From Candidatus Levybacteria bacterium RBG_16_35_11 (GTDB taxonomy: Bacteria > Patescibacteriota > Microgenomatia > Levybacterales > UBA12049): a DNA stretch of 60,736 bases. This document shows, piece after piece, positions 400 to 54,269 of this stretch (positions are counted from its first letter, which is position 1; the number at the start of each line of letters is the position of its first letter). Under the pieces are notes generated by a model. That model was not told the DNA's origin and searched no databases. It worked only from the letters and a program-made list of their open reading frames with translations. The position numbers and the translations under genes were made by a program. The stretch lies in contig MFNH01000071.1 of assembly GCA_001781995.1 (NCBI GenBank), positions 1 through 60,736 of the forward strand, written 5' to 3'.

Positions 400-1548
400 T
401 TATCTTACAGCTTTTTTTAATTCAGCAATTTTATCTGTTTTTTCCCAGGGGAACTCATTTCTTCCAAAATGTCCATAGGTTGAAGTTTTTCGATAAATCG
501 GTCTTTTTAAGTTTAAGGTTTTAATAATTCCCAAAGGACTCATGTCAAATACACGTCTTATTGCTTTTTCAATTTTTTCATCGCTTACTTTTCCTGTTCC
601 AAAAGTGGTAAGGTGAACAGAAACTGGTTGAGGGTAACCAATTGCATAAGCAATCTGAATTTCACATTTATCAGCAAGCCCTGCTGCAACGACATTTTTA
701 GCAATGTAGCGCGCCATATAAGCTCCTGATCTATCTTGCTTATTAGGGACCTTACCAGAAAATGCTCCACCTCCGTGTCTTGCCATTCCGCCGTAGGTAT
801 CGGCAATTATTTTTCTTCCCGTAACTCCTGTATCTCCTTGCGGTCCACCGGTAACAAATTTACCTGTTTCATTAATATAAATTTTTACATCTTTATGCAA
901 AAGTTTTCCACAAACTGGTTTAATTACATGTTTTATTATGTCCGCTCTTATTTTTTTGTAGGGGATTTTATCATGGTGCTGGGCTGCTATAACTACTGTT
1001 TCAATGGAAACTGGCTTATCATTTTCATACTCAACTGTTACTTGAGCTTTTCCGTCTGGCCGAAGATAGGGGATTATTTTCTTTTTTCTAACCTCAGACA
1101 GTCTTTTTGTTAATCCGTGAGCTAACATTATTGGCATAGGCATTAACTCGGGGGTTTCCTTGCAGGCAAAGCCTACCATCATTCCCTGGTCTCCTGCGCC
1201 ATGGGCTTTATGCAGTGCTTTTTTGGGGTTTTCTCCTTGGGCAATGTCCGGACTTTGTTCATGAATTACATTAATTACAGAACAGCTTTTATAGTCAATT
1301 CCATAGTCTGCATTTGTGTAACCAATATCTTTTAATACATCTCTAACAATTCTTTGGACATCAACATAGGTTTTAGTAGTTATTTCTCCTCCTACCACAA
1401 CCATTCCGGTAGTTGTAAATACCTCACAGCAACAAGCAGAATTGGGATCGTCTTTTAAAACTGCATCAAGTACTGCGTCTGCGATCTGATCACAGATTTT
1501 ATCCGGATGTCCCTCAGTTACTGATTCAGAAGTGAAATATTTCTTCAT
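400..1548 (-). CDS. metK: S-adenosylmethionine synthetase
   Basis: N-terminus [25 protein letters not shown], plus GAGDQGMM and GGGAFSGK motifs; 382 aa is the typical length. Confidence 0.97.
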
Positions 1549-1596
1549 TGATAAAATGAATAATACAAAAAATTGCTTAATCGAGCAAGGAGTAAA

Positions 1597-2070
1597 TTAT
1601 TTCGCAGGTTTTTCTAAACCATCCATGAATTCTCTCGCCTTTAATTCTGCCATCTCTGGGTCTTCGTTACTGGAATAACCACCGCAGTAAAAACTGCCAT
1701 CGTCTCCACGATAAGAATAATAAATTGACAAGCTTTCTCCGTTTGAGCCTGAGATTTCTTTAGGCAATCTCTGAATATGAATGGAATAAGCAGATGGTTT
1801 CCAAATTTTATAGTCAGCCCCATTTCTCTCAAAAGATAAATCGATAAAATCAAAATCAGGATGCCAAGAGTTATGAGAGTATTTCCACCACGTTTCAAAT
1901 AACTTTTCTGTAAATTCTGGAGTGGCAAAGAGTCTTTCGCCCAGTTCCTGAAAAAGCAGGCCGGCTGTTTTTACTATTTCCTGATCTGGTCCTTCCTTTA
2001 CTTCGGAATGAGTAGCAACTTCTTTTCCTCTGCCGCCAAATAATGTTTTAAAATGTCCTCCTACCTTCAT
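1597..2070 (-). CDS. hypothetical protein (157 aa)
   Basis: Intact ORF. The start lies 5 nt downstream of the stop of the cca-like remnant at 2076. No motif recognised. Confidence 0.55.
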   Translation of the reverse strand: MKVGGHFKTLFGGRGKEVATHSEVKEGPDQEIVKTAGLLFQELGERLFATPEFTEKLFETWWKYSHNSWHPDFDFIDLSFERNGADYKIWKPSAYSIHIQRLPKEISGSNGESLSIYYSYRGDDGSFYCGGYSSNEDPEMAELKAREFMDGLEKPAK

Positions 2071-2075
2071 AAATT

Positions 2076-2162
2076 TTAACCAACTTCCTTGATCTTTTTA
2101 AGCAAATAGTCTTTGTTGTTTTTGGAGAGATCTTCCTCTACTTCTTCAAAAAGCTTTTGCAT
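2076..2162 (-). pseudogene. displaced copy of the cca 3' end (28-codon remnant MQKLFEEVEEDLSKNNKDYLLKKIKEVG*)
   Basis: Ungapped match to the last 28 codons of cca (QKLFEEVDEDLSKNTREYLLKRIKNLK*), with the same distance to the stop. The core 2115-2159 matches 4679-4723 at about 40/45 nt by hand alignment. Confidence 0.6.
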
Positions 2163-2316
2163 CTTCCTCTTCTAATTCTTCTTTAATCTCGTCAAGTGTC
2201 TTTCCTGCTTGAAGCATACTTAATATCTTTTTTAAGTTTTGCCTTGCGTCTGATTCTGGATTATCAAGTTCTTTTAATAGTTCAACTTGTCTATTAACTC
2301 CTTTTACATAACTTGC

Positions 2317-2718
2317 TCATTGCACTCTGCATGCTCTTTCGGATGCTAAAATCATCTCTTCTGTAATTCCTGTAGATTCTGTATTCAGGTTTTTTGGATC
2401 AACTGTCTCATGGATTTCAATAAGATTTCCATTTTCAATTTTAGTTCCTATTATTTCCATTAATCCGTTTTTCTCAGGAGATGAAGGATAAACAAATGTT
2501 ATCGATTTTATCTCCTTATCTTTTGACAAAACTGCCCATGGCTCAAGAAGAGTGTAGCCGAAATCCTCCGCTAATAATTGCGTCATTAATTCCATTCGCC
2601 CACCACTAATTCCAGCATATTCGTTTATAACCTCGTCTGATAATCTATTAGCAGGTCTAATCAAGGGATCATGTGGTTTTCTTGGAAAATGTGATAAATC
2701 TAATTCAGGAGCTCTCAT
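2317..2718 (-). CDS. hypothetical protein (133 aa); the frame stays open for 56 more codons past its TGA
   Basis: ORF with a TTGAAT-17-TATATT promoter at 2728-2756. The in-frame continuation runs 2149-2316. Confidence 0.5.
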   Translation of the reverse strand: MRAPELDLSHFPRKPHDPLIRPANRLSDEVINEYAGISGGRMELMTQLLAEDFGYTLLEPWAVLSKDKEIKSITFVYPSSPEKNGLMEIIGTKIENGNLIEIHETVDPKNLNTESTGITEEMILASERACRVQ

Positions 2719-2769
2719 ATTAAAGTGAATATATCAGGAAAAGATCTCTAATTCAAGGGGACTTTTCGC

Positions 2770-2797
2770 TTGACACCCGTGAAAATAATGCTATAAT
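2770..2797 (+). promoter_or_regulatory. promoter TTGACA-16nt-TATAAT for the 181-aa gene
   Basis: TTGACA at 2770-2775 and TATAAT at 2792-2797; the ATG is 18 nt downstream. Confidence 0.5.
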
Positions 2798-2815
2798 CCT
2801 TTCACTTAAACTTTT

Positions 2816-3361
2816 ATGGCAGCAGAAGTAGAAAATCGCTCTGCCCCACCTGAGCTTCCCCAAGAAGAACTCGCAGAAAAATCATATAAAACGATTAATA
2901 ATTTAAAAGATCGTCTTTCCAATATTCCTGAAGTTGCAGCCGCAACTCTAAGAACTTATTTTTCGAGAGGAACATACTCGCATCGAGACGATGAAAAGAG
3001 ACTGCCAATAAACTACGGAGTAGGTTTTAATATCGGACAAGATTATTCAATGTCATCTAGTGAATATGAATTTTCTCTCAGAAAAGGTATTGGATGGGAC
3101 CCCAATAAAGATGGGGTAACCTCAAAACTATCATTAATAAGATATATTTCAAAAAATGTTTGGTGGAGTTTAAACTTGTCTTGTTCGTTTGAAGAAACGA
3201 AAGGAGATAAGACAGTACGGCCGTATTACGGTTCAATACTTTTGGAAAAATGGAGCTCCGGAAATGTCGTAAAAAAGATGGAAGATTCAACAGAAGCTTA
3301 TGATGCAATTCCTAAAACATTTCCCGAGCTTTATCCATCACCTCCAAAACCTTTCTTTTAG
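2816..3361 (+). CDS. hypothetical protein (181 aa)
   Basis: Intact ORF with a near-consensus promoter. No motif recognised. Confidence 0.55.
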   Translation: MAAEVENRSAPPELPQEELAEKSYKTINNLKDRLSNIPEVAAATLRTYFSRGTYSHRDDEKRLPINYGVGFNIGQDYSMSSSEYEFSLRKGIGWDPNKDGVTSKLSLIRYISKNVWWSLNLSCSFEETKGDKTVRPYYGSILLEKWSSGNVVKKMEDSTEAYDAIPKTFPELYPSPPKPFF

Positions 3362-3367
3362 TTCTTT

Positions 3368-3409
3368 TATTCTTTTAAGGAAACATTCGCGGGTGTATTT
3401 AGAAAGAAA
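3368..3409 (-). repeat. second, shorter displaced copy of the cca 3' end
   Basis: About 33/42 nt identical to 4655-4696, including the exact 12-mer attcgcgggtgt. It translates to LSKYTRECFLKRIKEL, compared with LSKNTREYLLKRIKNL in cca. Confidence 0.6.
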
Positions 3410-3438
3410 ATAGCGGGAAAGAATGAAGAATTGAATTT

Positions 3439-4539
3439 TTAGCTTCTACCCCAGTAACCAGTCTTGATTCTTTCTAATATTTTGTCGGTGGCTGCGTTAA
3501 TTTTCATGAGTTCTTCTGGGTCTACGTCTCCTTTATCCGGGTGATAAATACTTGCATAATTTCTTCGTATGCCAAGAACTATTTTTTCAGCATCCTTAGG
3601 AGATCTGCTCGATAATAAATCAGGATCAATTCCCAGAGTTTTGCAGTAACCATATGGATCCTCTGCGCTCGCATTTAATATTCTGATAAAAGGGGATTGA
3701 AAAGGTCTTTCCTTAGTCTCTTTTTTTAATTTCATGTTCTCAAAAAGTGCATTCTGAAGCTCTTCATTAGTTTTTATTAGTCTGCTTTTAATTCTGGCTA
3801 ATATAGTTTCTAAAACTTGCTCACGTGTTTTATCTCCGGTTTCATCTCCTGCGACTACATCTGTTTGGGTAGCTTTCTTCTCATAAATAACTTCAGCATT
3901 GGCGTCGTCGTATCCTGTAATTACAATAATGTTTCCTTCGTATCTAATTTGCAAGAATGGAGTGTAATAAGTAGCATGTTCTTTAATGTCTTTAATGTCC
4001 CAGCTGCTATCAAACACAACAGCTCTAGCTTCATTATTAATAAAACCTAATCTGAGATCCGAAGGCTCACGATCATGCCCCAAAGTTACATGTTCTCCCG
4101 GCTCCATACTAACGATTCCTTCGCTGATATCGTGTCCAGTGACATGTATTGCTGTAGGACCGTATCCATAGAGAGGACAGTTTATACGCACCTTGTTTAA
4201 CCTAATTGGATTATAGGTTTCATCAGTTATATTAACATCAGTAAATTCTCCGTTCCATTTATCCTCAAAAAGCCGGCTAACCTGAACTGTTCGAGGCGGT
4301 ATCCCAAAATCATACAAAAAAACATAAACAGCATATTCACCCGAGGAACTAGAATCAAGCGTATCTAGATCAACTATAGCTTCTGGTCGCTCGGGAGATA
4401 TCGTCTCTCTATGCATTACTATTTGTGGTATCTTGGACTCTTCGGTTTCAGCATTGCCTGACGAATCAACAATAATTGCGGCCTTTCTCAATTCGCCAGA
4501 AAGTGGAACTTTGCTTACTTGGAATTGTTCATTCGCCAT
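3439..4539 (-). CDS. J-domain (DnaJ-like) protein with an unknown N-terminal domain
   Basis: C-terminal J domain containing HPD (RRNYASIYHPDKGD). The start is moved to ATG 4539 because TTGAAG-17-TATATT (4547-4575) lies inside the ORF-track extension. Confidence 0.75.
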   Translation of the reverse strand: MANEQFQVSKVPLSGELRKAAIIVDSSGNAETEESKIPQIVMHRETISPERPEAIVDLDTLDSSSSGEYAVYVFLYDFGIPPRTVQVSRLFEDKWNGEFTDVNITDETYNPIRLNKVRINCPLYGYGPTAIHVTGHDISEGIVSMEPGEHVTLGHDREPSDLRLGFINNEARAVVFDSSWDIKDIKEHATYYTPFLQIRYEGNIIVITGYDDANAEVIYEKKATQTDVVAGDETGDKTREQVLETILARIKSRLIKTNEELQNALFENMKLKKETKERPFQSPFIRILNASAEDPYGYCKTLGIDPDLLSSRSPKDAEKIVLGIRRNYASIYHPDKGDVDPEELMKINAATDKILERIKTGYWGRS

Positions 4540-4546
4540 GTCCGGA

Positions 4547-4575
4547 AATATAGCAAATTTAGTCAATAACTTCAA
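4547..4575 (-). promoter_or_regulatory. promoter TTGAAG-17nt-TATATT, 7 nt upstream of ATG 4539
   Basis: Plus-strand cttcaa at 4570-4575 and aatata at 4547-4552. Confidence 0.45.
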
Positions 4576-4639
4576 CTTTGATAACGAAGAAGATGGGAGT
4601 TAACTTCACACCGCGTAGGTTGAAGGCTAGAGTTGGAAG

Positions 4640-5998
4640 TTACTTAAGATTCTTAATTCTCTTAAGAAGATATTCGCGGGTGTTTTTGGAAAGATCTTCA
4701 TCAACTTCTTCAAAAAGTTTTTGGAGGATTTCTCCTACCTTTTTACTTGGTTTAATGCTTAGCACCTTCATAACATCATTTCCGTCAACTGCCATATCTT
4801 CAACCGAAAAGGGCTTTGGCTTAAGTTGTTCAACAACTCTTTTTTTAAATAATTTTAATCTCCAACTTTCAGCTGTTTGGGTTCCTCCTCCAAGACGGTC
4901 TCCGATTCTTAAATCTATAATGTCTTTTACATTTTCTACCCCAACACGTCTGATAAATCTTCTTATTGCAGAATCTGTGTCTTTTTCATTTACCGAAAAC
5001 ATATGCCATCTTATTAAATTAACAACTCGATCCCTTCCTTTTTTGGAAAATCTTAAGTTTTCGCAAATGTCTTTGGCAATTTTAGCTCCAACAAGTTCAT
5101 GGTTATGAAAAATTACTAATCCTTTTTCGTCTTTTTTCTCTACTTTTGGTTTTCCAACATCATGAATTAAAGAGGCAAACCTAACAATAGGATCGATTGA
5201 CGGGGTAAATTTTAGAGAGAGAAGACCATGGGTAAAAACATCTCCTTTGTGGTGTCTTCCCGGTCGTTCCATCGAAACACCTTTGCCAATCTGAAGTTCA
5301 GGCAGGATGTGAGTTAAAAGCCCACTTTGATCAAGTAGCAAAATTCCTTCATAAGCTTTATTACTGGCTAGAATTTTTAATAATTCGTCTCTAACACGCT
5401 CTTTTGAAATATGAATAATTAAAGGAGAATCTTTTCTTATTTCTTCCCAAGTTTTACCCTCAATTTCAAAATCCAAACAGACTGCAAAACGAATAGCCCT
5501 TATTAGTCTTAAAGCGTCCTCTTTAAATCTCTCGCTTGGGTTACCAACAGCTCTTATTATTTTCTTTTCAAGGTCATCTCTGCCATTGTACGGATCAACA
5601 AAGTGAGGTTCACCTTTGATTAAATCCATTGAGATTGCGTTAACTGTAAAATCTCTGCGCTGTAAATCTTCATCTATTGTTTTTCCCCAAGCTACTTTTT
5701 CAGGGTGTCTTCTATCTTTGTATTCAGACTCGCTTCTATAAGTGGTAACCTCGACAATTTGCTTTTGTTTCTTTATTTCAGCAAGTATTCCAACAGTCCC
5801 AAACTTATTATCATAGAAAGCATCAGGGAATAATTTTAATATTGCCTCTGGAGTAGCATTTGTGGCAAAATCCCAATCCTTTACCGCTGTTTTTAAAATG
5901 ATGTCTCTAACACATCCGCCGACAAAATAAACCTCAAATCCTCCCTTTTTTACTTTTTCAAAAATCTCCAAGATCTCTTTTGGAATTAAGTTGTTCAT
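4640..5998 (-). CDS. cca: CCA-adding tRNA nucleotidyltransferase with HD domain
   Basis: Motifs VGGCVRD, RRDFTVNA and HD (HDVGK); 452 aa. Confidence 0.9.
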   Translation of the reverse strand: MNNLIPKEILEIFEKVKKGGFEVYFVGGCVRDIILKTAVKDWDFATNATPEAILKLFPDAFYDNKFGTVGILAEIKKQKQIVEVTTYRSESEYKDRRHPEKVAWGKTIDEDLQRRDFTVNAISMDLIKGEPHFVDPYNGRDDLEKKIIRAVGNPSERFKEDALRLIRAIRFAVCLDFEIEGKTWEEIRKDSPLIIHISKERVRDELLKILASNKAYEGILLLDQSGLLTHILPELQIGKGVSMERPGRHHKGDVFTHGLLSLKFTPSIDPIVRFASLIHDVGKPKVEKKDEKGLVIFHNHELVGAKIAKDICENLRFSKKGRDRVVNLIRWHMFSVNEKDTDSAIRRFIRRVGVENVKDIIDLRIGDRLGGGTQTAESWRLKLFKKRVVEQLKPKPFSVEDMAVDGNDVMKVLSIKPSKKVGEILQKLFEEVDEDLSKNTREYLLKRIKNLK

Positions 5999-20677: not shown

Positions 20678-21538
20678 ATGTGGTTGCCCTTTAGTTTCCT
20701 TAATGCTTTCTTTGATTCCTTTACAAATGTTTTTGCAAAAAGGGGATTGCAAAAAATTGACAACCTTTCAGTTGTCTGGTCACATAGGTTTTTTGGCATT
20801 TTGATACTTATCCCATTGGCAATTGCAACGTCTTCTTTTAAACCGGTGTCCTTTAATTTCTGGCCTGCATTGATTGGAAGTTCGATCATTAACACAGTTA
20901 CCGCAATTCTTTATGCAAAGGCAATAAAAGATTCAGATCTTTCTCTTGTCTTACCAATCATTACATTAACCCCTATATTTTTATTATTTACATCTCCCTT
21001 AATACTTGGTGAATTTCCAAAAACAATTGGAGTTGTCGGAATTGTATTTACAGTATTGGGGGCATATGTTCTAAATTTCAGTCAGAGAAAGTATGGCTTT
21101 TTCAAGCCCTTAATTAGCATTGTCAAGGAAAGCGGGCCAAGGTTAATGTTAATTATTGCTTTTTTATGGAGTATCTCCGCAAACCTAGATAAGATCGCAA
21201 TTAAGAACTCCAATCCATTACTTTATGCAGTCTCTATTGTTTTTGTTATGCTTGTTCTACTAACTGCAATTTTAATTTTCTATAAGACCTCTTTTAAAAA
21301 TATTTTTAGAAATAGCCGTATTCTTGCGCCAATAGGAGTGTCAGCTGGACTATCCACTTTTTTTCAGTTTTTTGCATTATCTTTAACAATTGTCCCTAAC
21401 GTAATTTCTGTAAAAAGGACAAGTGCAATTTTTAGTGTTTTTTGGGGAAAGTTGTTTTTTAAGGAAGAAAAGATTAAGGAAAGATTAATTGGAGCAATTG
21501 TTATGGTTTTGGGGGTAGTTTTAATTGCAATAAGCTGA
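20678..21538 (+). CDS. EamA/DMT-superfamily transporter
   Basis: 10 predicted TM segments arranged as two EamA-like halves; 286 aa. Confidence 0.7.
   Translation: MWLPFSFLNAFFDSFTNVFAKRGLQKIDNLSVVWSHRFFGILILIPLAIATSSFKPVSFNFWPALIGSSIINTVTAILYAKAIKDSDLSLVLPIITLTPIFLLFTSPLILGEFPKTIGVVGIVFTVLGAYVLNFSQRKYGFFKPLISIVKESGPRLMLIIAFLWSISANLDKIAIKNSNPLLYAVSIVFVMLVLLTAILIFYKTSFKNIFRNSRILAPIGVSAGLSTFFQFFALSLTIVPNVISVKRTSAIFSVFWGKLFFKEEKIKERLIGAIVMVLGVVLIAIS
21484..21538 (+). repeat. direct repeat R1 (the functional 3' end of the EamA gene)
   Basis: Matches 22180-22232 at about 49 of 55 aligned positions by hand. Confidence 0.7.
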
Positions 21539-21583: not shown

Positions 21584-22141
21584 ATGAACAGCTTGCAAAA
21601 ATTTAAATACAAGAACTGTTTTTTCTTCTTAATTTCTTTTCTAATTGCAATTTTTCTTTTTAAAATACCACAAGTTCAATCATTTTTATTTAACTTAGGT
21701 AATTTTGGTTATTTTGGTGCCTTTATTGGAGGAATGCTCTTTGTGTCAACTTTTACGATAGCAATTGGTGCGCTGGTACTTATGATACTTGCAAATACTC
21801 TTTCGCCACTAGAGATAGGAATTATTGCGGGAATCGGAGCTGTAGTTGGAGATTTTACCATTTTCCGATTTGTAAAAAATAATCTTTCAGGGGAACTAGA
21901 AGAAATTTATAACAAAATTGACACAAATCACCACATTATAAAGATTCTCCATACTAAATATTTCAGTTGGACATTACCAGTAATAGGGGCAATTATTATT
22001 GCATCTCCGCTTCCCGATGAAATAGGAGTAAGCCTTATGGGGATATCTAAGATGAAAGTCTATCAGTTTCTAATAACATCATTTATATTAAATACAATTG
22101 GAATATTTCTCGTAATTTCGGCAGGATTAATAATTAAGTAA
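21584..22141 (+). CDS. hypothetical polytopic membrane protein (185 aa), bracketed by R1/R2
   Basis: About 5 TM segments. Its own -10 TATACT at 21572-21577 ends 6 nt before the ATG. Confidence 0.6.
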   Translation: MNSLQKFKYKNCFFFLISFLIAIFLFKIPQVQSFLFNLGNFGYFGAFIGGMLFVSTFTIAIGALVLMILANTLSPLEIGIIAGIGAVVGDFTIFRFVKNNLSGELEEIYNKIDTNHHIIKILHTKYFSWTLPVIGAIIIASPLPDEIGVSLMGISKMKVYQFLITSFILNTIGIFLVISAGLIIK

Positions 22142-22179
22142 ATGACTTCTAGACGGTGTGAGTAAAAGTGGTAGCACCT

Positions 22180-22232
22180 ATTAATTGGACAATAGTTATG
22201 GTTTAGGGGTAGTCTTAATTGCAATAAGCTAA
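22180..22232 (+). repeat. direct repeat R2 (decayed copy of the EamA 3' end, with an in-frame stop)
   Basis: attaattggacaatagttatggtttaggggtagtcttaattgcaataagctaa, compared with R1. It ends 17 nt before the hydrolase ATG. Confidence 0.7.
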
Positions 22233-22249
22233 GAAGAGACTCGTGATTT

Positions 22250-27264: not shown

Positions 27265-28197
27265 ATGATAGAAATAAAATGCATCCTTTGTGGAGATAAA
27301 CAGAGAACTTCAATATTATTTAAAAAAAGTTTTTCCAGAAGAGATATAAATAAAACAGTTTTTTCCGCAAGGAGAAATCCCGATTCAGTCCATTATCAAA
27401 TTAACAAATGCGAAAGATGCGGAATGGTTTTTTCTTCTCCCGTGATTTCCTCAGGAAACATACTTAAGCTTTATAAAAATAGTAAATTTAATTATCAAGA
27501 TAAGGCTCATCTACTTTCAAAAACTTATCTTACCTATCTTAGAAAAAAGACAAAATATTCACAAAAATCAAGGATTTTGGACATAGGATGCGGAAACGGC
27601 TTTTTTCTCAAGGAAATTTTTGCAAAAGGAAACAAAAATATTTATGGGGTAGAACTAAGCAAAGATGCAGTATCAAAGGCAAGCAAAAATATAAAAGACA
27701 GAATAAAACTTACTCCACTTAAGAAAAATATTTATAGAAACGATTCTTTCGATTTAATTACCTGCTTTCATACCTTGGACCATGTTATCGATCCTAATAA
27801 TTTTATGAAAACTGTTTTTAATTATTTAAAACCAAAAGGACAAGTTTTTTTTATCGTACATGACGTGAAGGGATTATCTGTTAAAGTGTTTGGGGAAAAA
27901 TCTCCAATTTTCGACATTGAACACATTTTTCTTTTCAATGAAAATACCCTAAAAAAGCTTTTTTTGAAAAACGAATTTAGAAATATAAAGACTTTTAAAA
28001 TAAGGAATAGTTACAGCTTTTATGATTGGCTTATATCATCCCCTTTTCCGCTAAAAATAAAGAAACCAATTTCAGCTTTTTTAAAGACAACAGGCATAGG
28101 GAAAATGATGCTACATTTGAAAGCTGGTAACATAGGAATAATTGCTTCTAAGCGATATCAGCCAAAAAGGTTAGGAAAGAAGGTCGCGAAAAGGTAA
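27265..28197 (+). CDS. class I SAM-dependent methyltransferase with an N-terminal Cys4 ribbon
   Basis: CILCG...CERCG followed by ILDIGCGNG. Confidence 0.85.
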   Translation: MIEIKCILCGDKQRTSILFKKSFSRRDINKTVFSARRNPDSVHYQINKCERCGMVFSSPVISSGNILKLYKNSKFNYQDKAHLLSKTYLTYLRKKTKYSQKSRILDIGCGNGFFLKEIFAKGNKNIYGVELSKDAVSKASKNIKDRIKLTPLKKNIYRNDSFDLITCFHTLDHVIDPNNFMKTVFNYLKPKGQVFFIVHDVKGLSVKVFGEKSPIFDIEHIFLFNENTLKKLFLKNEFRNIKTFKIRNSYSFYDWLISSPFPLKIKKPISAFLKTTGIGKMMLHLKAGNIGIIASKRYQPKRLGKKVAKR

Positions 28198-29411
28198 AGA
28201 ATAATAGCAATAGCAATTCCCACAAAAGTCAAAATAACAACAGCATTCATTATTTTTGAGTTAATATAACCACCAAGAATTTTTTTATCATTTGAAAGAA
28301 CGTATAAGAAAATAAAGACCGGTAAAAGAAGTACCGCATTTATTGACTGAGTAATAATAAGGACAGGAATAAGGGGGACAAAGGGGAAAATTACCATTAA
28401 TGCTCCTAAGATTATGGAAAACGTAAAAATCCCGTAAAAATAAGGGGCCTCCCGAAATTTATAATTAAGGCCTGATTCAAGACCAAACGCTTCGGTAATA
28501 ACATAAGATGTTGAAAAAGGAACAAGGGCTGCTCCAAAAATTGACGCATTTAGAAAGCCAATTGCAAATAGCACAGAAGCAAATTGTCCGGCAAGGGGTT
28601 GAAGAGCCAAAGCTGCGTGTTTTGCATCAGTAATTGTAATTCCTTTTGTAAACAGGACTGCTGCAGAAGTAACTATTATAAAAAAAGCAATAAAATTTGT
28701 TAAGAAAGATCCGAAAAATACATCTCCTCTTTCAATTTTTAAATCCTCTTTGGAAAGCTTCTTATCTACAACATAACCTTGGATAAAGAATTGTCCCCAA
28801 GGTGTAATGGTTGTTCCAATTACTGCCATCATCATTAAAAAATAACCATGGCTAAATTGAAAAGTTGGAGTAACTAAGCTTTTTACCGCAAGCCCCCAAT
28901 CGGGATGAACAACAACTGCAGAAATAAGATAGGCAAAATAGAAAAAAGATAAGCCAAGAAAGACCCGCTCTAGCATTTTAAATCCCCCCCTTGTTACCAA
29001 AAAATATATAAAAACAGTTGCAACCGGGATTGAAATAAACCGAGGAACATTAAGAATCTCTAAAGATGCTCCTATTCCTGCAAATTCCGCAGCAATTACC
29101 CCTGTGTTACCAATAAAAAGGACTGCCATAACAAAAGTTGTCCATCCAATTCCAAACTTCTCTCGTATTAGTGAAGCAAGTCCCTTACCGGTTACAAGTC
29201 CCATTCTTGCTCCGATTTCTTGAGTTATTGCAAGCGAAAAAGTTGTTAAAAAAAGCACCCAAAGTAAAGAGTATCCAAAGTTTGCTCCGGCTACCGAATA
29301 TGTTGTAATTCCACCTGCGTCATTATCGGCAGTTCCCGCAATTATACCGGGACCGATTACGATTAGAAAAGGGAGTAATCGTTTAAATAATTTTCTTCTA
29401 AATTCCTTCAT
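28158..29411 (-). CDS. Nramp-related permease B (non-canonical metal site)
   Basis: GPGIIAGTADNDAGGITTYS in TM1 and GTTITPWGQFF in TM6; about 11 TM segments. Confidence 0.8.
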   Translation of the reverse strand: MKEFRRKLFKRLLPFLIVIGPGIIAGTADNDAGGITTYSVAGANFGYSLLWVLFLTTFSLAITQEIGARMGLVTGKGLASLIREKFGIGWTTFVMAVLFIGNTGVIAAEFAGIGASLEILNVPRFISIPVATVFIYFLVTRGGFKMLERVFLGLSFFYFAYLISAVVVHPDWGLAVKSLVTPTFQFSHGYFLMMMAVIGTTITPWGQFFIQGYVVDKKLSKEDLKIERGDVFFGSFLTNFIAFFIIVTSAAVLFTKGITITDAKHAALALQPLAGQFASVLFAIGFLNASIFGAALVPFSTSYVITEAFGLESGLNYKFREAPYFYGIFTFSIILGALMVIFPFVPLIPVLIITQSINAVLLLPVFIFLYVLSNDKKILGGYINSKIMNAVVILTFVGIAIAIILYLFATFFPNLFG

Positions 29412-30585
29412 ATTCAGCGCTTTCCTCTTCGATTCTTGCTAAGATTGAGTCAATTGTTATTATTCCGATAGGTTTTTTCTCTCTATCTACAACTGGAAGG
29501 ACTCTTAAATTGTAGTGGGTAAAAATTTCCAAGATCTTTTTAAAATCAACATATGGGTAAGTAAATTTTCTCTCAGAAACAATATCTTTAAGCTGAGCAA
29601 GAGGATCTTTATCTATTAGGTCTTTTATGTAAGTTACGCCAACAAATCTTTCAGCGCCGTTCGTAATTATAATTGCCTCAGGTTTTATTTCTTCCGTTGA
29701 AAGCTCACTCATTAGTTCTTTAACGGTTTTATTTCCATCTATTGAAAGAAAGTTTAAAATCATTAAACCTCCGGCAGTATCTTGGGGGAATTTAACTAAT
29801 CTTTCAACAGTTGCCGCTTTTTCTCCTCCTAATAATTTAAGAATTTCTGCTAATCTTAGAGGGTTAAGTTTATAGAAAATGTCTGCGATTTCAGAAACCC
29901 GCATTCTATTTACTACTTTTTCCAAAAAACTGGGAGGCAACTGTTCCAATATTGCTTCTTGAGTGTGCTCTTCTGCTTCTTCGATTGCCTCAGCTGCCTT
30001 TTCTGTGTCTAAACTTTCAACGATTCCAAGCCTTTCTTTTGTGCCTGCTTCTTCCAAAATATCTGCCAGTTCACTTGGATGGAAAGTATTTAATCGTGTT
30101 TGAGTTACTTTAATTTTTATATTCCCGGTTTCATAGTCAAAGGCTTCTATCATTTGCCAGGGAAGAATTTTTGACTCTGCTTTGATTAATTTTCCCAAAT
30201 GAAGCCTTCTTAAAAGTCCTGCAAGTCCAATGTCTATGCCAATTACTTTAATTTCGCCATTTCGCTCTAAAAGCACATCATTTACTCGAACTAATCTTTT
30301 TCCGTCGATATCGATAACTTGTTTATCCAATAAATCCTCATTTAAATAAAAGTCTTTAGTGTCATAGGGCAGGATAGGAAAATCGGTTGTTTTAAGAATA
30401 GCTCCTCTGGTGTGGAATTCGATTGAATTTGGAGGAACGGTTATTTTTCTCGATCCAATTTTTATTACAACCTTAGAAAGGGAAGGTTGGGGATGATTTT
30501 CAAATACGGAAGCATCAATAATTTTGCCGTATTTTTTTTTCTGAAAATAAACGTTTTTATTGACAATTTGACTTAAATAAATCAT
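29398..30585 (-). CDS. soluble PRC-barrel-like / MgtE N-terminal domain / CBS-pair protein
   Basis: The MgtE_N-like segment is LADILEEAGTKERLGIVESLDTEKAAEAIE. C-terminal CBS-like repeats follow, and there are no TM segments. Confidence 0.75.
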   Translation of the reverse strand: MIYLSQIVNKNVYFQKKKYGKIIDASVFENHPQPSLSKVVIKIGSRKITVPPNSIEFHTRGAILKTTDFPILPYDTKDFYLNEDLLDKQVIDIDGKRLVRVNDVLLERNGEIKVIGIDIGLAGLLRRLHLGKLIKAESKILPWQMIEAFDYETGNIKIKVTQTRLNTFHPSELADILEEAGTKERLGIVESLDTEKAAEAIEEAEEHTQEAILEQLPPSFLEKVVNRMRVSEIADIFYKLNPLRLAEILKLLGGEKAATVERLVKFPQDTAGGLMILNFLSIDGNKTVKELMSELSTEEIKPEAIIITNGAERFVGVTYIKDLIDKDPLAQLKDIVSERKFTYPYVDFKKILEIFTHYNLRVLPVVDREKKPIGIITIDSILARIEEESAEYEGI

Positions 30586-30648
30586 ATTTTAATTTTAGTT
30601 TTGCCTCAGTTGATCTGTCAAGGATTAATACGCTTTTTTTAGAACTAA

Positions 30649-31959
30649 TCAAAGGAGTAAAAACATTGAAACCGCGGCTGCTGCCATCGCAAAAAACGTA
30701 AGCCAGACAAGTGTTTTTGAAATTTTCCCGCTTTTGTATTCACCCATAATTTTTTCGTTAGAGGCAATTTTGGCAATTAAGAAAATTAACGGAACTGCCA
30801 CAACTCCGTTAATTACTGCTGTTACAACTAAAGCTTTCATTGGATCAATACCAACAAAATTAATAGCTAGTCCTATTAAAGTTGCAATTATAATTACACC
30901 ATAAAAGCCATGAGCCCGTTTTAATTTTAAGTTTAAACCCTCATTCCAGTTAACCGCCTCAGCTACGGCATAAGACGCAGATCCCGCAAGAACAGGAACA
31001 GCCAAAAGTCCTAAGCCAATTATTCCAAAGGAAAAAATGCATTTTGCTAAAAATCCCGAATTAGGAAAGGTTTGAACAAGCGGTTCAAGCGCTTTAGCAG
31101 CATCAGCCGCGGTATTAATATTTGTAATGCCACTTACATAAAGAGTGCCTGCGGTTGTAACGATAATTGCCCACATTGTAATTTCTGAAGCAGTCATTCC
31201 TATAAGGGTGTCTATCCGGATTAAACGGATGAAATTCCAGCTAATTCTTGGAGGACTACTAATAGTTGATAAGTGTTTGGCTTTTTCTTCTTCGACCTCT
31301 TCACTTGCTTGCCAGAAAAACATGTATGGAGAAATTGTTGTTCCTAAAACTCCTGTAATCATAAAAAAGAAGCCAAAAGAAAATTCAAAATGGGGAATTA
31401 AGGTAGATTTTAATATCTCTATCCACGGTTCATTAATAATAAAAACCGTAATTAGATATGAGACAAGTGCAAGAGAAAGCCACTTTAAAATCCTTGCATA
31501 AACTCTGTAGGAACTAAAGATTTCCAAAAGAAGAACAATAATCGTAAATAGTATGGTTAGAATAACAAATGGGATGGGAACAATTAGCTGTGCTGCTGCA
31601 GCAACAGCGCCAATATCAGCTCCGATATTAACTGTATTTGCTATAACAACAAGAATAACCGCAGATAATACTATTTTTTTGCTATAAAATTGTTTGCATA
31701 CTGCAACAATCCCTTTTCCCGTAACAACACCAATTCTTGCGCATGCTTCTTGGACTGCAGTTTGGAAGGGAAGCATAAAAAGTGACGTCCAAAGCAGGCC
31801 ATAGCCAAACTGTGCTCCCGTTTGTGAGTAGGTTGCGATCCCCGATGGGTCGTCATCTGCAGCCCCTGTTACAAGACCTGGTCCCAATATTCTTAAGAAA
31901 CGGCTAAACTTATGCCTTATTTTATTGGCTTCTTTTTCCACATTTTCAGTGTTCCACAA
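30649..31959 (-). CDS. Nramp-related permease A (non-canonical metal site)
   Basis: [20 protein letters not shown] in TM1 and [12 protein letters not shown] in TM6. The start is uncertain: TTG at 31959 or GTG at 31941. Confidence 0.8.
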
Positions 31960-40278: not shown

Positions 40279-42642
40279 ATGTCTTTATTTAAAAAAACCT
40301 GGACTTATCTCGTAATTTTAATTATTGTCCTTTCTTTTTTTGCCCCTGTATTTAAAGGCCAAATTCCGTTCCCCGGAGATTATCTTATAAACCAAAATCC
40401 TTATGGTAAAAGTTCATTTCTTGGGTATGCTCCGGCAGGGTATCCAACTAAAGGTCAAGGGATAGATGTTGTAAAAGAAATTTATCCCTGGCGTTATTTT
40501 TCCATTAATCAATTAAAAATTGGAGAGATACCATTTTGGAATCCCTATAATTTTTCCGGAAATCCTCAAGCGGCAAATTTTCAAACAGCTGCTTTTTATC
40601 CTTTAAACTTTTTTTATTTTCTGGTTCCCTTTGACCTTTCTTGGTCTATTTTAATTATGATCCAACCTTTACTTGCCGGGTTTTTTATGTTTCTTTTTTT
40701 AAACCGGGGCTTAAAACTTTCAAATGAATCAGCAGTGCTTGGGGCAATTTCCTTTGGCCTCTCGTCCTATATGACGGTTTGGCTTGAGTATGGGAATATT
40801 GGCAATACTTTCATGTGGCTTCCCCTTATTCTTTATTTAATAAAGAAAATATCCGCTAAAAATTCCGTTTTGAGCTTTATACTTTTAACTTTCTCATTTG
40901 TCTTTAGTTTATTGGCAGGTTATATTCAGGGATTTTTCTATGTTTTTGCGGTATCTTTCTTGTTTTTGCTTTTTACTGTTTTTACCTCTGATAAAAAAAA
41001 CAGATTTAAAACAATCTTTATATTTTTTTCATCTTTTATCGTTTCTTTAATGCTTACTTCTTTTCAATTACTTTCAACTTACCAAATCTTTCAACAATCT
41101 ACCCGCGGATCATACAGTCTTTCTCAGTTTTCAAACTTACTTCTCCCGCCGTATTATTTAATAACTTTTTTCTTCTCCGATTTCTTTGGAAACCAGGCAA
41201 CAAGAAATTACTGGTTAGATGGAACATATATAGAAAGAGTAATGTATGTTGGAGTCGCTTTTTCTTTTTTTGTTTTTTATGCGGTTAAAAAGGTAGGATC
41301 AAAAGAAAAACTTTTTTTCTTAATCCTTGGTGCAGTATCTCTTATTGTTGCGACCAATTTCCCGCTTATAAAATACCTATACTTAATTCCAATTCCCGTC
41401 ATTTCTACCACTGTCCCAACAAGAGAGCTCTCTGTTTTTATTTTCTCAACAATAGTTTTGGGGGCAATGGGTGTTAATTTTTGGCAGAAAAATCCAAACA
41501 AAAGCAGACTACCGATCTTTTTTCTTGGCTTTTTTATCCTTATTATTCTTGGAGAGTTTATTGCTTATGCTTTGGGATATTTCCCAAATGCAAATTTTAG
41601 AATAACGCTTCGAAACTCAATTTTACCCTTTACTCTTGCAGCACTTACCATTTTTACCTTTTATTTTAAAAAATATAACAAGAAAGTTGCTTTAACCTTG
41701 CTTTTTTTAATTATCATCTTAGACCTCTCCTATTTTTTTAATAAAATTACTCCGTTTTCTCCAAAAGAGTTAATTTATCCGCAAACTCCTGTTGTAAATT
41801 TTTTAAACAAAAACGCAGGAATCAACCGTTTTTGGGGTTATGGGAGCGCATATATTTCTCCTAATTTTCAAACTGTTGATAAAACTTACTCTCCTGAGGG
41901 AAATGACCCGCTTCATATTGTCCGATACGGAGAGCTTTTAGCTTCCTCAAGGGATGGAAAATTGCCGGAAGTTCTCCCAAGACCGGATGCAAATGTCGCA
42001 AGCGGTTTTGGAAAGGAAGACTTAAAATCTAATTTTTTTAGAAAAAGAACCCTGGATTTATTAGGAGTTAAATATATCTTAAATGAAAGCGTTGAAATGA
42101 AGGCGGATTTAACTACCTTCCCAGAAGCTTCATATAGTCTTGTCTGGCAAAAATCCCCTTTTCAGATATATGAAAATAAAGCTGCGCTTCCAAGGTTTTT
42201 TTTGGCAAATAACTATGCAGTTAAAAGGGATAAAAATGATATTTTAAATTCCATTTACGATAAGAATTTAGACCTAAGAAAAACTCTTATTTTAGAAGAA
42301 GAACCCAAAATTTCAATTAACAAGGAAACAAAAGGGTCAGTTTCTTTAATTTCATATAAGCCTAATCAAGTTGAATTTAAAACTAAAAGTAATGGAAATT
42401 CACTTCTTTTTCTTTCCGATAATTATTTCCCTGGATGGGAAGTAAGAATGGATGGAAAAAAATGGCACTTGCAAAGAGCTAATTACACCTTCAGAGCAGT
42501 GCCTGTGCCTGAAGGTGAACATGCAGTTATAATGAACTATAGCCCGCAACTATTTAATTTTGGATTAAAAATCGGTGCCTTTGGCTTAATTTTACTCATT
42601 TTAATGTCTTTAGGAATAAAGTTTTATGAAAAGAAAAGTTAA
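40279..42642 (+). CDS. YfhO-family membrane glycosyltransferase, paralog 1
   Basis: PFWNPYNFSGNPQAANFQTAAFYPLN and C-terminal FPGWEVRMDGKK...RANYTFRAVPVPEGEH. Confidence 0.78.
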   Translation: MSLFKKTWTYLVILIIVLSFFAPVFKGQIPFPGDYLINQNPYGKSSFLGYAPAGYPTKGQGIDVVKEIYPWRYFSINQLKIGEIPFWNPYNFSGNPQAANFQTAAFYPLNFFYFLVPFDLSWSILIMIQPLLAGFFMFLFLNRGLKLSNESAVLGAISFGLSSYMTVWLEYGNIGNTFMWLPLILYLIKKISAKNSVLSFILLTFSFVFSLLAGYIQGFFYVFAVSFLFLLFTVFTSDKKNRFKTIFIFFSSFIVSLMLTSFQLLSTYQIFQQSTRGSYSLSQFSNLLLPPYYLITFFFSDFFGNQATRNYWLDGTYIERVMYVGVAFSFFVFYAVKKVGSKEKLFFLILGAVSLIVATNFPLIKYLYLIPIPVISTTVPTRELSVFIFSTIVLGAMGVNFWQKNPNKSRLPIFFLGFFILIILGEFIAYALGYFPNANFRITLRNSILPFTLAALTIFTFYFKKYNKKVALTLLFLIIILDLSYFFNKITPFSPKELIYPQTPVVNFLNKNAGINRFWGYGSAYISPNFQTVDKTYSPEGNDPLHIVRYGELLASSRDGKLPEVLPRPDANVASGFGKEDLKSNFFRKRTLDLLGVKYILNESVEMKADLTTFPEASYSLVWQKSPFQIYENKAALPRFFLANNYAVKRDKNDILNSIYDKNLDLRKTLILEEEPKISINKETKGSVSLISYKPNQVEFKTKSNGNSLLFLSDNYFPGWEVRMDGKKWHLQRANYTFRAVPVPEGEHAVIMNYSPQLFNFGLKIGAFGLILLILMSLGIKFYEKKS

Positions 42643-49886: not shown

Positions 49887-50638
49887 GAAAAATTAGCGCA
49901 ATCATAATTGCAAAAGATTCTGCTGAGTCTATAGCAAAAACACTTGACTCTGTTTCATTCTGTGACCAGGTAATCGTTGTTAACAATGATTCAAAAGACA
50001 ATACGGCAAAAATTGCAATGGATAAAAAAGCAGAAGTTTTTGACTATTCAGGCGATAACTTTTCAGAGATTAGAAATTTCGGACTCAAAAAAGCAGAAGG
50101 GGATTTTGTGCTGTATGTTGACTCTGATGAAATTATCAGTGAAGCGCTAAGGATGGAAATATTAAAAATTCTAAAAGGGGATTTTCTAAAATCAAGTTAC
50201 TTTGTAATGAGAAAAAACTTCTATTTTGGCAATTACCAATGGCCAAAAGAGGAAAAAATCGAGAGACTGTTTCTAAAAAGTGCTCTAAAGGGTTGGCAAG
50301 GTAGGATTCACGAAAGCCCAATGGTCTTAGGAGAAAAAGGCATGTTAAAAGGATATCTTTTACACTATACCCATAAAGATTTAACCTCTATGTTAAATAA
50401 AACAATTGAGTGGTCAAAAATAGAAGCAGATCTTCGTTTTAGATCGAACCATCCTAAAATGACGTGGTGGAGGTTTCCAAGAGTTATGATAACTGCTTTT
50501 TTTGACTCTTATTTTAAAAAGAGGGGATACAAGGCAGGAACAATTGGAGTTATTGAAAGCATTTTTCAAGCCTACAGTGCTTTTACCACCTATGCAAGAC
50601 TCTGGGAAATGCAGCAGAAAAATGAAAAAAATCCTTAA
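49883..50638 (+). CDS. GT2 glycosyltransferase
   Basis: SAIIIAKD and VDSDE; similar in layout to the 48064 gene. Confidence 0.8.
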   Translation: MRKISAIIIAKDSAESIAKTLDSVSFCDQVIVVNNDSKDNTAKIAMDKKAEVFDYSGDNFSEIRNFGLKKAEGDFVLYVDSDEIISEALRMEILKILKGDFLKSSYFVMRKNFYFGNYQWPKEEKIERLFLKSALKGWQGRIHESPMVLGEKGMLKGYLLHYTHKDLTSMLNKTIEWSKIEADLRFRSNHPKMTWWRFPRVMITAFFDSYFKKRGYKAGTIGVIESIFQAYSAFTTYARLWEMQQKNEKNP

Positions 50639-53201: not shown

Positions 53202-54269
53202 GTGAAAGTAGGCATTTTTGACCCTTATTTGGATGATTTAGGCGGCGGGGAAAAATACATGATGAAAATTAGTCAGTGCCTTGTCGACAATAACGATGTT
53301 TACGTATTTTGGGACGAAAAAAAAGACCTTATAAGACTAAAAGAAAGATTTCTTCTTGATCTTTCAAGAATAAAAATTACTAAGAATATCTTTTCGAAAA
53401 ACATAACCCGTCTTAAAAGATTTTCGGAAAGCAGAAAATACGATGTTATTATTGTTTTAAGTGATGGGAGCATACCCTTGCTTTCCGCTAAAAAACTATT
53501 TATCCATTTTCAGCAACCGCTTAATATTAAAGCTAATTTTAATACCAAACTTAAGATAAAAAGAGTTAAAGGTTTTTTTTGCAATTCTTATTTCACCAAA
53601 TCTTATGTTGATAAATCATTTGGAATAAATTCACAAGTGCTGTATCCACCAGTTGAACTTAAACCAAAAAATCTTAAAAAAGAAAATATTATTCTCCATG
53701 TCGGTCGATTCAGAGTAAGACATGTTGGAAATGCGACAATAGATTATAAAAAACAAGATTTTATGATCGGAGTCTTTAAAAAAATGGTAAATAACGGACT
53801 TAAAAACTGGAAATTTATTTTAGCAGTTAGCGTTAAAGAGAATGAGCAAGAGCTATTTGAAGAACTTATTAAGAAAGCAAAAGGTTTTCCAATAGAATTT
53901 TTAATAAGTAAAAACAATGATCAGTTATGGGATGCCTATTCAAGAGCGAAAATTTACTGGCATGCTTCTGGATTTGGAGAAAATTTAGAGGATCATCCCG
54001 AATATGCGGAACATTTCGGTATTTCAACAGTTGAAGCAATGGGAGCAGGGGCGGTACCGGTTGTAATTAATGCAGGGGGACAAAAAGAAATTGTTAAAGA
54101 TAATGAAAATGGCCTTTTGTGGATAACGGAAGACGAATTAATCGAAAAAACAATGCTTTTAACAGCAGATGAAAAAAAGAGAGTTAAACTTTCTCAAAAT
54201 GCTATTAATAGAGCTAAGTTTTTTTCAGGCGAACGCTTTTGCAGAGAACTTGTAGAAATAATTGGATGA
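53202..54269 (+). CDS. GT4 (GT-B fold) glycosyltransferase
   Basis: EHFGISTVEAMGAGAVPVV (EX7E region). Confidence 0.85.
   Translation: MKVGIFDPYLDDLGGGEKYMMKISQCLVDNNDVYVFWDEKKDLIRLKERFLLDLSRIKITKNIFSKNITRLKRFSESRKYDVIIVLSDGSIPLLSAKKLFIHFQQPLNIKANFNTKLKIKRVKGFFCNSYFTKSYVDKSFGINSQVLYPPVELKPKNLKKENIILHVGRFRVRHVGNATIDYKKQDFMIGVFKKMVNNGLKNWKFILAVSVKENEQELFEELIKKAKGFPIEFLISKNNDQLWDAYSRAKIYWHASGFGENLEDHPEYAEHFGISTVEAMGAGAVPVVINAGGQKEIVKDNENGLLWITEDELIEKTMLLTADEKKRVKLSQNAINRAKFFSGERFCRELVEIIG

Follow-up and report, generated by a model that had tools for sequence, protein, structure and literature searches.

Why should a housekeeping gene be followed by further copies of its own tail, with unrelated genes lodged between them? 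The question is raised by cca, the gene for the CCA-adding tRNA nucleotidyltransferase, in a 60.7-kb stretch of DNA with 54 genes, referred to here as the window, from Candidatus Levybacteria bacterium RBG_16_35_11. This organism belongs to the Microgenomates within the candidate phyla radiation (CPR), and has a genome of 34% GC. The gene itself is intact, and its functional tail (c1) recurs downstream as an outermost copy (c2) and as a shorter copy in the middle (c3). On the minus strand the order is cca, a gene for a J-like protein of 366 amino acids (aa), c3, a 181-aa gene that lies on the opposite strand, a 133-aa gene, c2, a 157-aa gene, and finally metK; recJ is found on the plus strand, divergent from cca. 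CPR bacteria have small genomes, few recognisable mobile elements and many lineage-specific orphan genes.

The explanation that we favour, and to which we give about an even chance, is that the two extra cca tails are scars of homology-anchored insertion, akin to the "C-terminal displacement" of rhs genes and proceeding without an integrase. The 3.1 kb now found between cca and metK were most likely assembled from at least three separately acquired pieces, namely the J-like gene, the pair of 181-aa and 133-aa genes, and the 157-aa gene.

Three cca tails in one locus

The three tails were returned as a family by a repeat search of the window (2080-2130, 3357-3407 and 4644-4694), together with a pair of 72 nucleotides (nt) that is 79% identical (2088-2159 against 4652-4723). 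When the last 151 nt of cca were compared with the whole window by blastn, c2 was recovered at 2098-2159 (82%, E=1e-12) and c3 at 3366-3407 (83%, E=3e-7), and further matches in the window were found only at E>=0.29. Neither of the two scores (69 and 50) was reached in dinucleotide shuffles, 300 of the target and 300 of the query, for which the mean was 23 and the maximum 36; with 0 of 600 shuffles, both copies lie far above chance.

The first-pass annotation of this DNA had reported, from the letters, that the last 28 codons of cca (4640-4723) recur at 2076-2162 in the same orientation and with the same length to the stop codon, that a core of this repeat agrees at 40/45 nt, that a shorter third copy shares with the gene the 12-mer ATTCGCGGGTGT, and that the stop codon of c2 lies 5 nt ahead of the start of the 157-aa gene. 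These observations are all confirmed, the third copy as a 51-nt fragment (3357-3407) and the 5-nt distance by hand, and the coordinates and hand counts hold. Within the window the repeat does not behave as a dispersed element unrelated to cca, a possibility that had also been raised.

Every repeat runs to the position of the cca stop codon and no further. The edges are abrupt, since the 180 nt on each side of every copy show no similarity above that of shuffled sequence. An extension of the homology past the repeats was considered and rejected, the flanks being at shuffle level and the translations upstream of c2 failing to align to cca. Exact matches between the copies extend to at most 12-17 nt, and their overall identity is 75-83%. 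The outer part of the array, in which c2 is followed by the 157-aa gene and metK, is reproduced in three independent ENA assemblies, two of which also hold the 3' part of the 133-aa gene. Misassembly is therefore implausible, with so little identical sequence between the copies and three assemblies in agreement. Two independent ENA assemblies (L152 and L154) both break at window position 2422, inside the 133-aa gene, and these breaks may represent a branch in the assembly graph that arises from strain variation at the locus.

The tail is a part of the enzyme, since the Pfam domain tRNA_NucTran2_2, which is matched by the protein along with PolyA_pol, PolyA_pol_RNAbd and HD, covers residues 307-446. 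Few stretches of the protein are as well conserved across Levybacteria as this tail (QKLFEEVDEDLSKNNKEYLLKRIKEL...). The three copies are nearly evenly spaced, at 1277 and 1287 nt (starts at 2076, 3357 and 4644). Tandem duplication of a 1.28-kb unit was rejected, as the intervals share no DNA similarity and the genes that they carry are not paralogs, bar a weak likeness between the 157-aa and 181-aa proteins. The coordinates of the locus, and of the other duplicated tails that are described below, are collected in Table 1.

Table 1. Positions of the cca-metK array and of further duplicated gene tails; coordinates are those of the window unless a genome is named.
Feature	Position	Strand	Basis
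cca, CCA-adding tRNA nucleotidyltransferase, 452 aa, intact, source of the repeated tail	4640..5998	-	Pfam, gene order
c1, functional cca tail, QKLFEEVDEDLSKNTREYLLKRIKNLK then stop	4640..4723	-	last 28 codons of cca
Cargo 1, 366 aa, unknown N-terminal domain and divergent C-terminal J-like domain	3439..4539	-	HPD motif
c3, truncated cca tail, 17 codons (LSKYTRECFLKRIKELK)	3357..3407	-	similarity to c1
Cargo 2a, 181-aa orphan gene, 3' end abutting c3	2816..3361	+	open reading frame, consensus promoter
Cargo 2b, 133-aa orphan gene	2317..2718	-	open reading frame, promoter-like site
Open frame of about 55 codons continuing the frame of the 133-aa gene past its TGA	2147..2316	-	read from the sequence
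c2, intact 28-codon open reading frame, MQKLFEEVEEDLSKNNKDYLLKKIKEVG then stop, ending 5 nt before the 157-aa gene	2076..2162	-	similarity to c1
Cargo 3, 157-aa orphan gene, beyond the outermost copy c2	1597..2070	-	open reading frame
metK, conserved gene, far flank of the hot spot	400..1548	-	identity to metK of relatives
EamA transporter gene, tail 21484-21538 source of the repeat	20678-21538	+	Pfam EamA
185-aa VTT/DedA-like membrane protein gene between the EamA tails	21584-22141	+	weak Pfam VTT_dom match
EamA tail copy, last 53 nt and stop	22180-22233	+	self-comparison
recJ tail copies, 30-43 nt	L128 5143-5185; L127 5646-5674; L034 ~4700-4735; L080 ~5640-5675		four other Microgenomates genomes

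The insertion site, its cargo and the origin of the tails

The locus was compared with 151 loci that encode relatives of cca, drawn from species-representative genomes and from metagenomes. The order aspS-recJ-cca is conserved across Levybacteria, and metK comes immediately after cca in six relatives (L147, L102, L023, L056, L018 and L026). In four of these, metK lies 15-70 nt after cca and its product is 85-91% identical to that of the window: L147 (metK 89%, cca 83% over the C-terminal 170 aa), L102 (metK 91%, cca 75%), L056 (metK 86%, cca 72%) and L023 (metK 85%, cca 63%). Other cargo is found in three further relatives. L151 (cca 71%, metK 89%) carries a 1.75-kb pair of ABC-transporter genes ahead of metK, and L079 (cca 65%), in whose locus no metK was found, carries an ABC transporter of the same type. 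In the closest relative, L072 (cca 78%), a homolog of the 133-aa gene comes next, after a spacer of 46 nt, and the contig ends before metK is reached.

Since cca and metK are adjacent in related Levybacteria, the 3.1 kb from 1549 to 4639, the 157-aa gene included, represent inserted DNA. Judging from these gene orders, the junction of the conserved genes cca and metK is a hot spot in this clade, for which both empty sites and sites with other cargo are at hand among the relatives. A repeat of the locus's own cca end was found in none of 131 loci, and no relative that represents an intermediate stage of the array was recovered, the L072 contig being too short to show one. Recombination breakpoints were sought in cca and metK with relatives that are at most 78-91% identical, and none was detected; a sliding-window comparison of metK likewise gave no mosaic signal.

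The first-pass annotation had taken the locus for the footprint of DNA that inserts into the 3' end of a gene and supplies a replacement end, and had proposed c2, with its operon-like spacing to the 157-aa gene, as the original end of cca. Insertion at the end of cca, with copies of the tail bounding the blocks, is retained here. The outermost copy as outer boundary is not: c2 does not mark the outer edge of the insertion, because the 157-aa gene lies beyond it and is absent from all 151 related loci, and this same absence removes the case for an original operon of c2 with that gene. Nor is the reading of c2 as the original end supported, as it is the present tail that agrees with the nearest relative, L072. 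Between c1 and the L072 tail, 26/28 aa and 68/84 nt are identical, and the agreement of the two cca genes is consistent along their whole length (69-93% per segment), with no breakpoint detected.

Copy c2, which ends ...NNKDYLLKKIKEVG, differs from c1 at 21 of 84 nt, 12 of them at third codon positions, without insertions or deletions and with a ratio of nonsynonymous to synonymous differences (pN/pS) of 0.38. A profile was built from 36 natural Levybacteria tails, which themselves score from 74 to about 100; c2 scores 82, inside the natural range, and when c1 was made to decay neutrally in simulations, be it by as few as 10 substitutions, 0 of 5000 sequences reached this score. On this evidence, c2 comes from a cca gene that remained functional for almost the whole time over which it and c1 diverged. 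Taken together, the ortholog-like substitutions, the profile score and the simulations mean that two cca lineages contributed to the locus, unless c2 is still under selection. Copy c2 resembles more distant Levybacteria (for L079, 24/28 aa and 66/84 nt) slightly more than it does L072, L102 and L147, which would be weak evidence against an ancestral native end, the differences being small over 84 nt. Rather than ancestral, c2 looks imported, or displaced from another allele, and its origin is probably foreign.

The middle copy has a different character. It shares 78-83% identity with c1 (13 differences in 54 nt, 8 at third codon positions), its stop codon has mutated to GAA, two conserved residues have changed (N to Y and Y to C), and it scores 32 on the tail profile against 53 for c1, all of which indicates that c3 is partly decayed. 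The lineage-specific codons ACC CGC GAA are common to c3 and c1. By hand count, the last 8 codons of c3 match the L072 tail at 20/24 nt, as against 16/24 for c1, and in L072 the tail that resembles the end of c3 stands directly before the homolog of the 133-aa gene. Plausibly, c3 would be the former native tail, displaced outward on the arrival of the J-like gene, and it probably stood beside the 133-aa gene before that event. The earlier proposal that the inner copy is an old tail pushed outward by the J-like gene fits with the closeness of its end to the L072 tail. A derivation of the displaced fragments from other alleles or lineages thus holds for c2, and c3 is native-like. All three copies lie in the same orientation with cca intact, which is the direct-repeat arrangement of accretion at the 3' end of a gene.

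The genes between the copies have promoter-like sites of their own, as had been noted in the first reading of the sequence. They are found ahead of the J-like gene (4575-4547), the 133-aa gene (2756-2728) and the 181-aa gene, where the site is a perfect TTGACA-16-TATAAT (2770-2797). The description of the first of these as a J-domain gene stands in part: the protein gives no direct Pfam match to DnaJ, but it has a conserved HPD motif, of which H333 and D335 are invariant, and distant homologs of its C-terminal region pass the DnaJ threshold. The family is very small, with 31 matching cluster representatives among 1.84 billion, and gave no match in viral contigs.

The J-like, 181-aa and 157-aa proteins have no homolog among the 151 related loci, and neither the 181-aa nor the 157-aa protein matches a Pfam, PHROG or PADLOC family. 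Among 5.8 billion proteins, the 157-aa and 133-aa proteins each match only themselves, the latter also when an alignment with the L072 fragment served as the query. Look-ups of the exact cca, J-like and 181-aa proteins returned no match. A single-sequence structure model gave no lead to the function of the 157-aa protein, as it was of low confidence, with a predicted local distance difference test (pLDDT) score of 57, and had no significant fold match in the PDB. The N-terminal regions of the 157-aa and 181-aa proteins are weakly similar (27% over 55 aa, E=5e-4 for this one comparison), and the two may be distant paralogs.

The homolog of the 133-aa gene in L072, 46 nt past the cca stop codon, is 58% identical over 33 aa (E=8e-7) and 52% over 47 aa. 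The 41 nt upstream of the 133-aa gene (2719-2759) can also be aligned, at 31/42 positions, to the cca-metK spacer and promoter of L102 (9359-9400); this alignment scores 32, where shuffled sequences average 19 and reach at most 29, and the sequence immediately upstream of metK in the window differs. Past the TGA of the 133-aa gene, its frame continues for about 55 codons and runs 5 codons into c2, which at 34% GC would be expected by chance in a few per cent of cases (hand estimate). This frame may be the remnant of a longer gene that was cut at the c2 junction, or the 133-aa gene may have gained a nonsense codon. An alternative code, in which TGA is read as sense, was rejected, as table 11 already yields complete metK, cca and recJ genes. 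The cargo is host-like in composition (GC 0.35-0.41), and a search for a compositional anomaly of the insert found none.

The statement of the first reading that no integrase, transposase or terminal inverted repeats are visible also holds. With Pfam, no integrase, transposase or recombinase domain was detected in the cargo or in the 50 of 54 window genes that were scanned; terminal inverted repeats are absent from the edges of the blocks, no tRNA lies near the locus and there is no Rfam match. In about 50 Levybacteria relatives, 148 open reading frames (ORFs) of at least 150 aa lie within 4 kb downstream of cca, and mainly encode SecDF, YqeY and ABC-2 transporters. No integrase, transposase or recombinase family is present among the 25 commonest of the 30 Pfam families found there, the remaining 5 having at most one member each. 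An integrase mechanism of the type used by tRNA and tmRNA islands, with which the pattern had been compared, is consequently not supported by either the window or these common downstream families.

Two further origins were examined and rejected. The known target duplications that are made by transposons are about 2-15 bp long. Insertion by a transposon or insertion sequence was discarded, given that Pfam showed no transposase in the 50 window genes scanned, that the blocks lack terminal inverted repeats, and that the duplications measure 51-84 nt. An origin from a phage or defence system was also discarded, since PHROG gave no significant match and PADLOC no more than two marginal ones at E~0.008; no toxin, immunity or defence family was detected in the cargo.

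Duplicated tails at EamA and recJ

The same footprint is encountered again at other genes. Comparison of the window with itself gave only four repeats, one of which is the tail of an EamA transporter gene. The copy of this tail is found after a gene for a 185-aa protein and 16 nt ahead of the next gene (22250); over 53 nt its identity to the source is 90.6%, two single nucleotides have been deleted, and the stop codon has changed from TGA to TAA. The 185-aa protein has a homolog (58%) elsewhere in L079. A scan of the tails of all 54 window genes left only cca (score 69) and EamA (77) above the null maximum of 33, so that the search for other displaced gene ends, run within the window, yields the EamA tail in addition to that of cca.

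When 1477 genes of the related loci were scanned, duplicates of the recJ tail were detected in L128 and L127, and a targeted check added L034 and L080. Each of these copies is found on the far side of a small insertion that parts recJ from aspS, two genes that in several relatives are separated by only 9-15 nt. The inserted genes comprise a PIG-L-like gene with two orphans, a 66-aa helix-turn-helix gene, a 110-aa orphan and a 103-aa ORF. In the four genomes the copies begin at a nearly identical homologous position of recJ, and in L127 and L128 each copy is identical to the tail of its own genome over 21-24 nt, though the two genomes differ there at several positions. The window is modestly enriched for duplicated tails, which 2 of its 54 genes possess, compared with about 2-3 among the 1477 genes of the related loci (Fisher p about 0.01). 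Scan matches in L005 (4648-4857 and 7019-7228) were discarded, as they consist of perfect 55-nt direct repeats, 155 nt apart, that interrupt aspS and recJ; in this public metagenome-assembled genome they were judged to be an artefact of assembly at k=55.

The 8-mer CGGTGTGA occurs only twice in the 60.7 kb, at 4606-4613, just past the cca stop codon, and at 22154-22161, ahead of the EamA copy. Its standing as a shared junction motif was considered and rejected, since the surrounding alignment is not significant, with a p of about 0.02 and better-scoring matches elsewhere.

Elsewhere in the window, three large ORFs (40279-42642, 50502-52937 and 54239-56518) share 68-69% nucleotide similarity over about 180 nt, and the first of them has a Pfam match to YfhO. 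They sit in a 25-kb cluster with genes for glycosyltransferases, PMT_2 proteins and polysaccharide synthesis. An MgtE-like gene lies between two Nramp paralogs at 28158-31959.

Explanations and known systems

Under homology-anchored insertion, incoming DNA from a related genome would bring the 3' region of cca together with a different downstream neighbour. On one side it would be integrated by homology, in either cca or metK; the join on the other side would be illegitimate, as in homology-facilitated illegitimate recombination, or would come about when a circularised fragment undergoes a single crossover. In both cases a truncated cca tail would be left, in direct orientation, between the old and the new cargo, and the 5' edge of each fragment would mark the illegitimate junction. 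The similarity between copies would stop at the stop codon because donor and recipient have no homology beyond the gene. Such insertion needs no integrase, and a foreign, functional-looking tail such as c2 is what it would be expected to leave. The route of recombination and the order and direction of the events are inferred, and the relatives available for comparison are distant.

A number of observations weigh against this explanation. A donor genome, with a homolog of the 157-aa or J-like gene next after cca, was not found, and the search for a breakpoint in cca or metK came back empty. The fragments are all short (84, 51 and 53 nt in the window, 30-43 nt at recJ), where random illegitimate junctions should vary more widely in length, and the recJ fragments of four genomes start at nearly one homologous position. 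This hints at a process that sets the length or prefers certain sites, at selection for short remnants, or at a single old event followed by gene conversion. The EamA copy, with its deletions and random changes, has the look of a duplicate made in situ and not of a foreign tail, and since it appears to be locally derived, not every case need share one origin. The regular 1277/1287-nt spacing of the cca tails also has no explanation under this scheme.

A wider proposal is possible, although we regard it as doubtful: that Microgenomates/CPR genomes generally gain genes without integrases by using the conserved last 30-90 nt of housekeeping genes as portable homology blocks. Single orphan genes would then be captured, stacked and perhaps excised at the junctions of conserved genes, with the tails serving as att-like sites. 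The proposal draws on seven tail copies at six loci, on the enrichment within the window and on the near-constant start of the recJ copies, the last of which would allow a site-preferring mechanism not yet described. In any event, a new gene whose distal side carries a short second copy of the preceding conserved gene's tail provides a signature that can be searched for. It points to integrase-free acquisition at fixed hot spots, and so bears on the poorly understood entry of orphan genes into CPR genomes. If it is general, gene gains in uncultivated lineages could be dated and ordered, and C-terminal displacement, known so far from polymorphic toxin loci, would extend to housekeeping genes. 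If it amounts to a handful of recombination scars, we are dealing with a tidy but ordinary case of insertion at a hot spot.

Of the alternatives, the one that survives best is site-specific accretion, in which decayed elements resembling cis-mobilizable elements (CIMEs) would have been stacked at the 3' end of cca by a tyrosine or serine integrase that has since been lost or is encoded elsewhere, the cca tails being the attL, attI and attR sites that rebuild the gene. The pattern is formally equal to the tandem accretion of CIMEs and microCIMEs in streptococci (PMC7563491): direct repeats reach the end of the gene, cca is intact, the similar fragments are short (51-84 nt here and 30-43 nt at recJ), and the near-constant start of the recJ repeats in four genomes is as would be expected of a defined att site. 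We nevertheless consider it unlikely. No integrase was found in the window (50 of 54 genes) or in the 25 commonest of 30 downstream families of about 50 relatives, and what has been inserted are single ordinary or orphan genes and not remnants of mobile elements. The repeats lack a long identical core (12-17 nt exact, 75-83% overall), though age could have erased one. The 157-aa gene lies outside the outermost "att" and is yet absent from relatives, and c2 differs from c1 in the manner of an ortholog, which is unexpected for att sites of one crossover.

Duplication in situ is rather unlikely. Here break repair or template switching near the stop codon would have copied 30-90 nt of the target, in the manner of a very long target-site duplication, with the spare copy decaying since. 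The EamA copy (90%, two 1-nt deletions) and c3 (stop codon lost, two radical changes) do resemble decaying duplicates, and the recJ copies of L127 and L128 match the tail of their own genome over 21-24 nt. The simulations described above speak against it, as c2 is not a neutrally decayed duplicate of c1 (0/5000). We also know of no bacterial insertion mechanism that yields duplications of 30-90 nt, which counts against such an origin, and it neither gives a reason for the block always ending at the stop codon nor explains the source of the cargo.

It is improbable that the copies are instead kept by selection, whether as a 28-aa peptide, as expression signals or a means of translational coupling, or as a portable homology block by which cassettes could be excised and inserted again. 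Copy c2 does keep an ATG, an open frame, a conservative amino acid sequence and a stop codon 5 nt before the next start. At recJ-aspS the gap of 9-15 nt in empty relatives means that the recJ tail must carry the signals for aspS, which could favour insertions that duplicate the tail. Against this, c3 and the EamA copy are clearly degenerating, the copies in L127 and L034 are separated from aspS by a spacer with a promoter-like sequence of its own, there is no match to an Rfam family, and the putative peptide is known only as a reading frame. Finally, chance similarity in AT-rich DNA, suggested by a genome of 34% GC and a tail rich in A, G and lysine and glutamate codons, is effectively refuted by the E values (1e-12 and 3e-7), the 0 of 600 shuffles and copies that are in frame and end at the stop position, as is a chimeric strain assembly by copies too diverged (12-17 nt exact) to mislead a k-mer assembler and by three assemblies that agree.

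Among known systems, the islands that are found at tRNA and tmRNA genes, along with the H47 island of Escherichia coli, share with the cca locus the duplication of the target's 3' end as direct repeats at the borders. H47 carries no recombinase and is excised when the host recombines its short repeats independently of RecA (PMC5426353). The cca locus differs from both in that the target is protein coding, no tRNA is nearby and the repeats have diverged.

The streptococcal CIMEs, which are 1.2-13 kb in size and carry cargo without an integrase, are located at the 3' ends of rpsI, fda and rpmG (PMC7563491). Like the cca array, CIMEs and microCIMEs form tandem integrase-less blocks that are bounded by direct repeats of the 3' end of a conserved gene, with the target left intact. 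However, CIMEs derive from integrative and conjugative or integrative and mobilizable elements and make use of the integrase of a related element, and integrase-bearing relatives occupy the same sites. No integrase-bearing element was seen at the cca site among the 25 commonest of 30 downstream families in about 50 relatives, and the blocks are of 0.7-1.3 kb with single genes and repeats without a long identical core.

The minimal mobile elements of Neisseria (PMC1797815, PMC3787668) resemble the cca-metK junction in having a fixed site, varying cassettes and no mobility genes, and are thought to be exchanged through flanking homology (PMC1797815, PMC3787668). Depending on the genome, the cca-metK site is empty or holds an ABC transporter, a homolog of the 133-aa gene or the 3.1-kb array, and the recJ-aspS site behaves likewise. 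Minimal mobile elements are described as replacing one another without duplication of the ends of the flanking genes, whereas at cca the cassettes have accumulated with fragments of the flanking gene between them.

In the arrays of rhs genes, of contact-dependent inhibition (CDI) systems and of type VI secretion system (T6SS) effectors, as at cca, an intact gene is followed by 3' fragments in the same orientation, each with different cargo; the fragments come from different alleles or lineages, as c2 does here, and there is no integrase. For the tips of rhs genes, a single crossover of a circular intermediate that carries a fragment of the core has been proposed (Jackson et al. 2009, PMC2935791), and for T6SS effector-immunity arrays, sequential displacement by homology-facilitated illegitimate recombination (Kirchberger et al. 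2017, PMC5361080). In these systems the variable part is the C-terminal toxin tip and the cargo is an immunity gene, whereas at cca the tail is conserved and it is the downstream neighbour that varies. The cca locus also differs in that the gene encodes a housekeeping enzyme, the repeated block is only 51-84 nt long, and a toxin, immunity or defence family was not detected. Analogous architectures of displacement and accretion have already been described, and what is seen here is their occurrence at housekeeping genes of a CPR bacterium without mobility genes.

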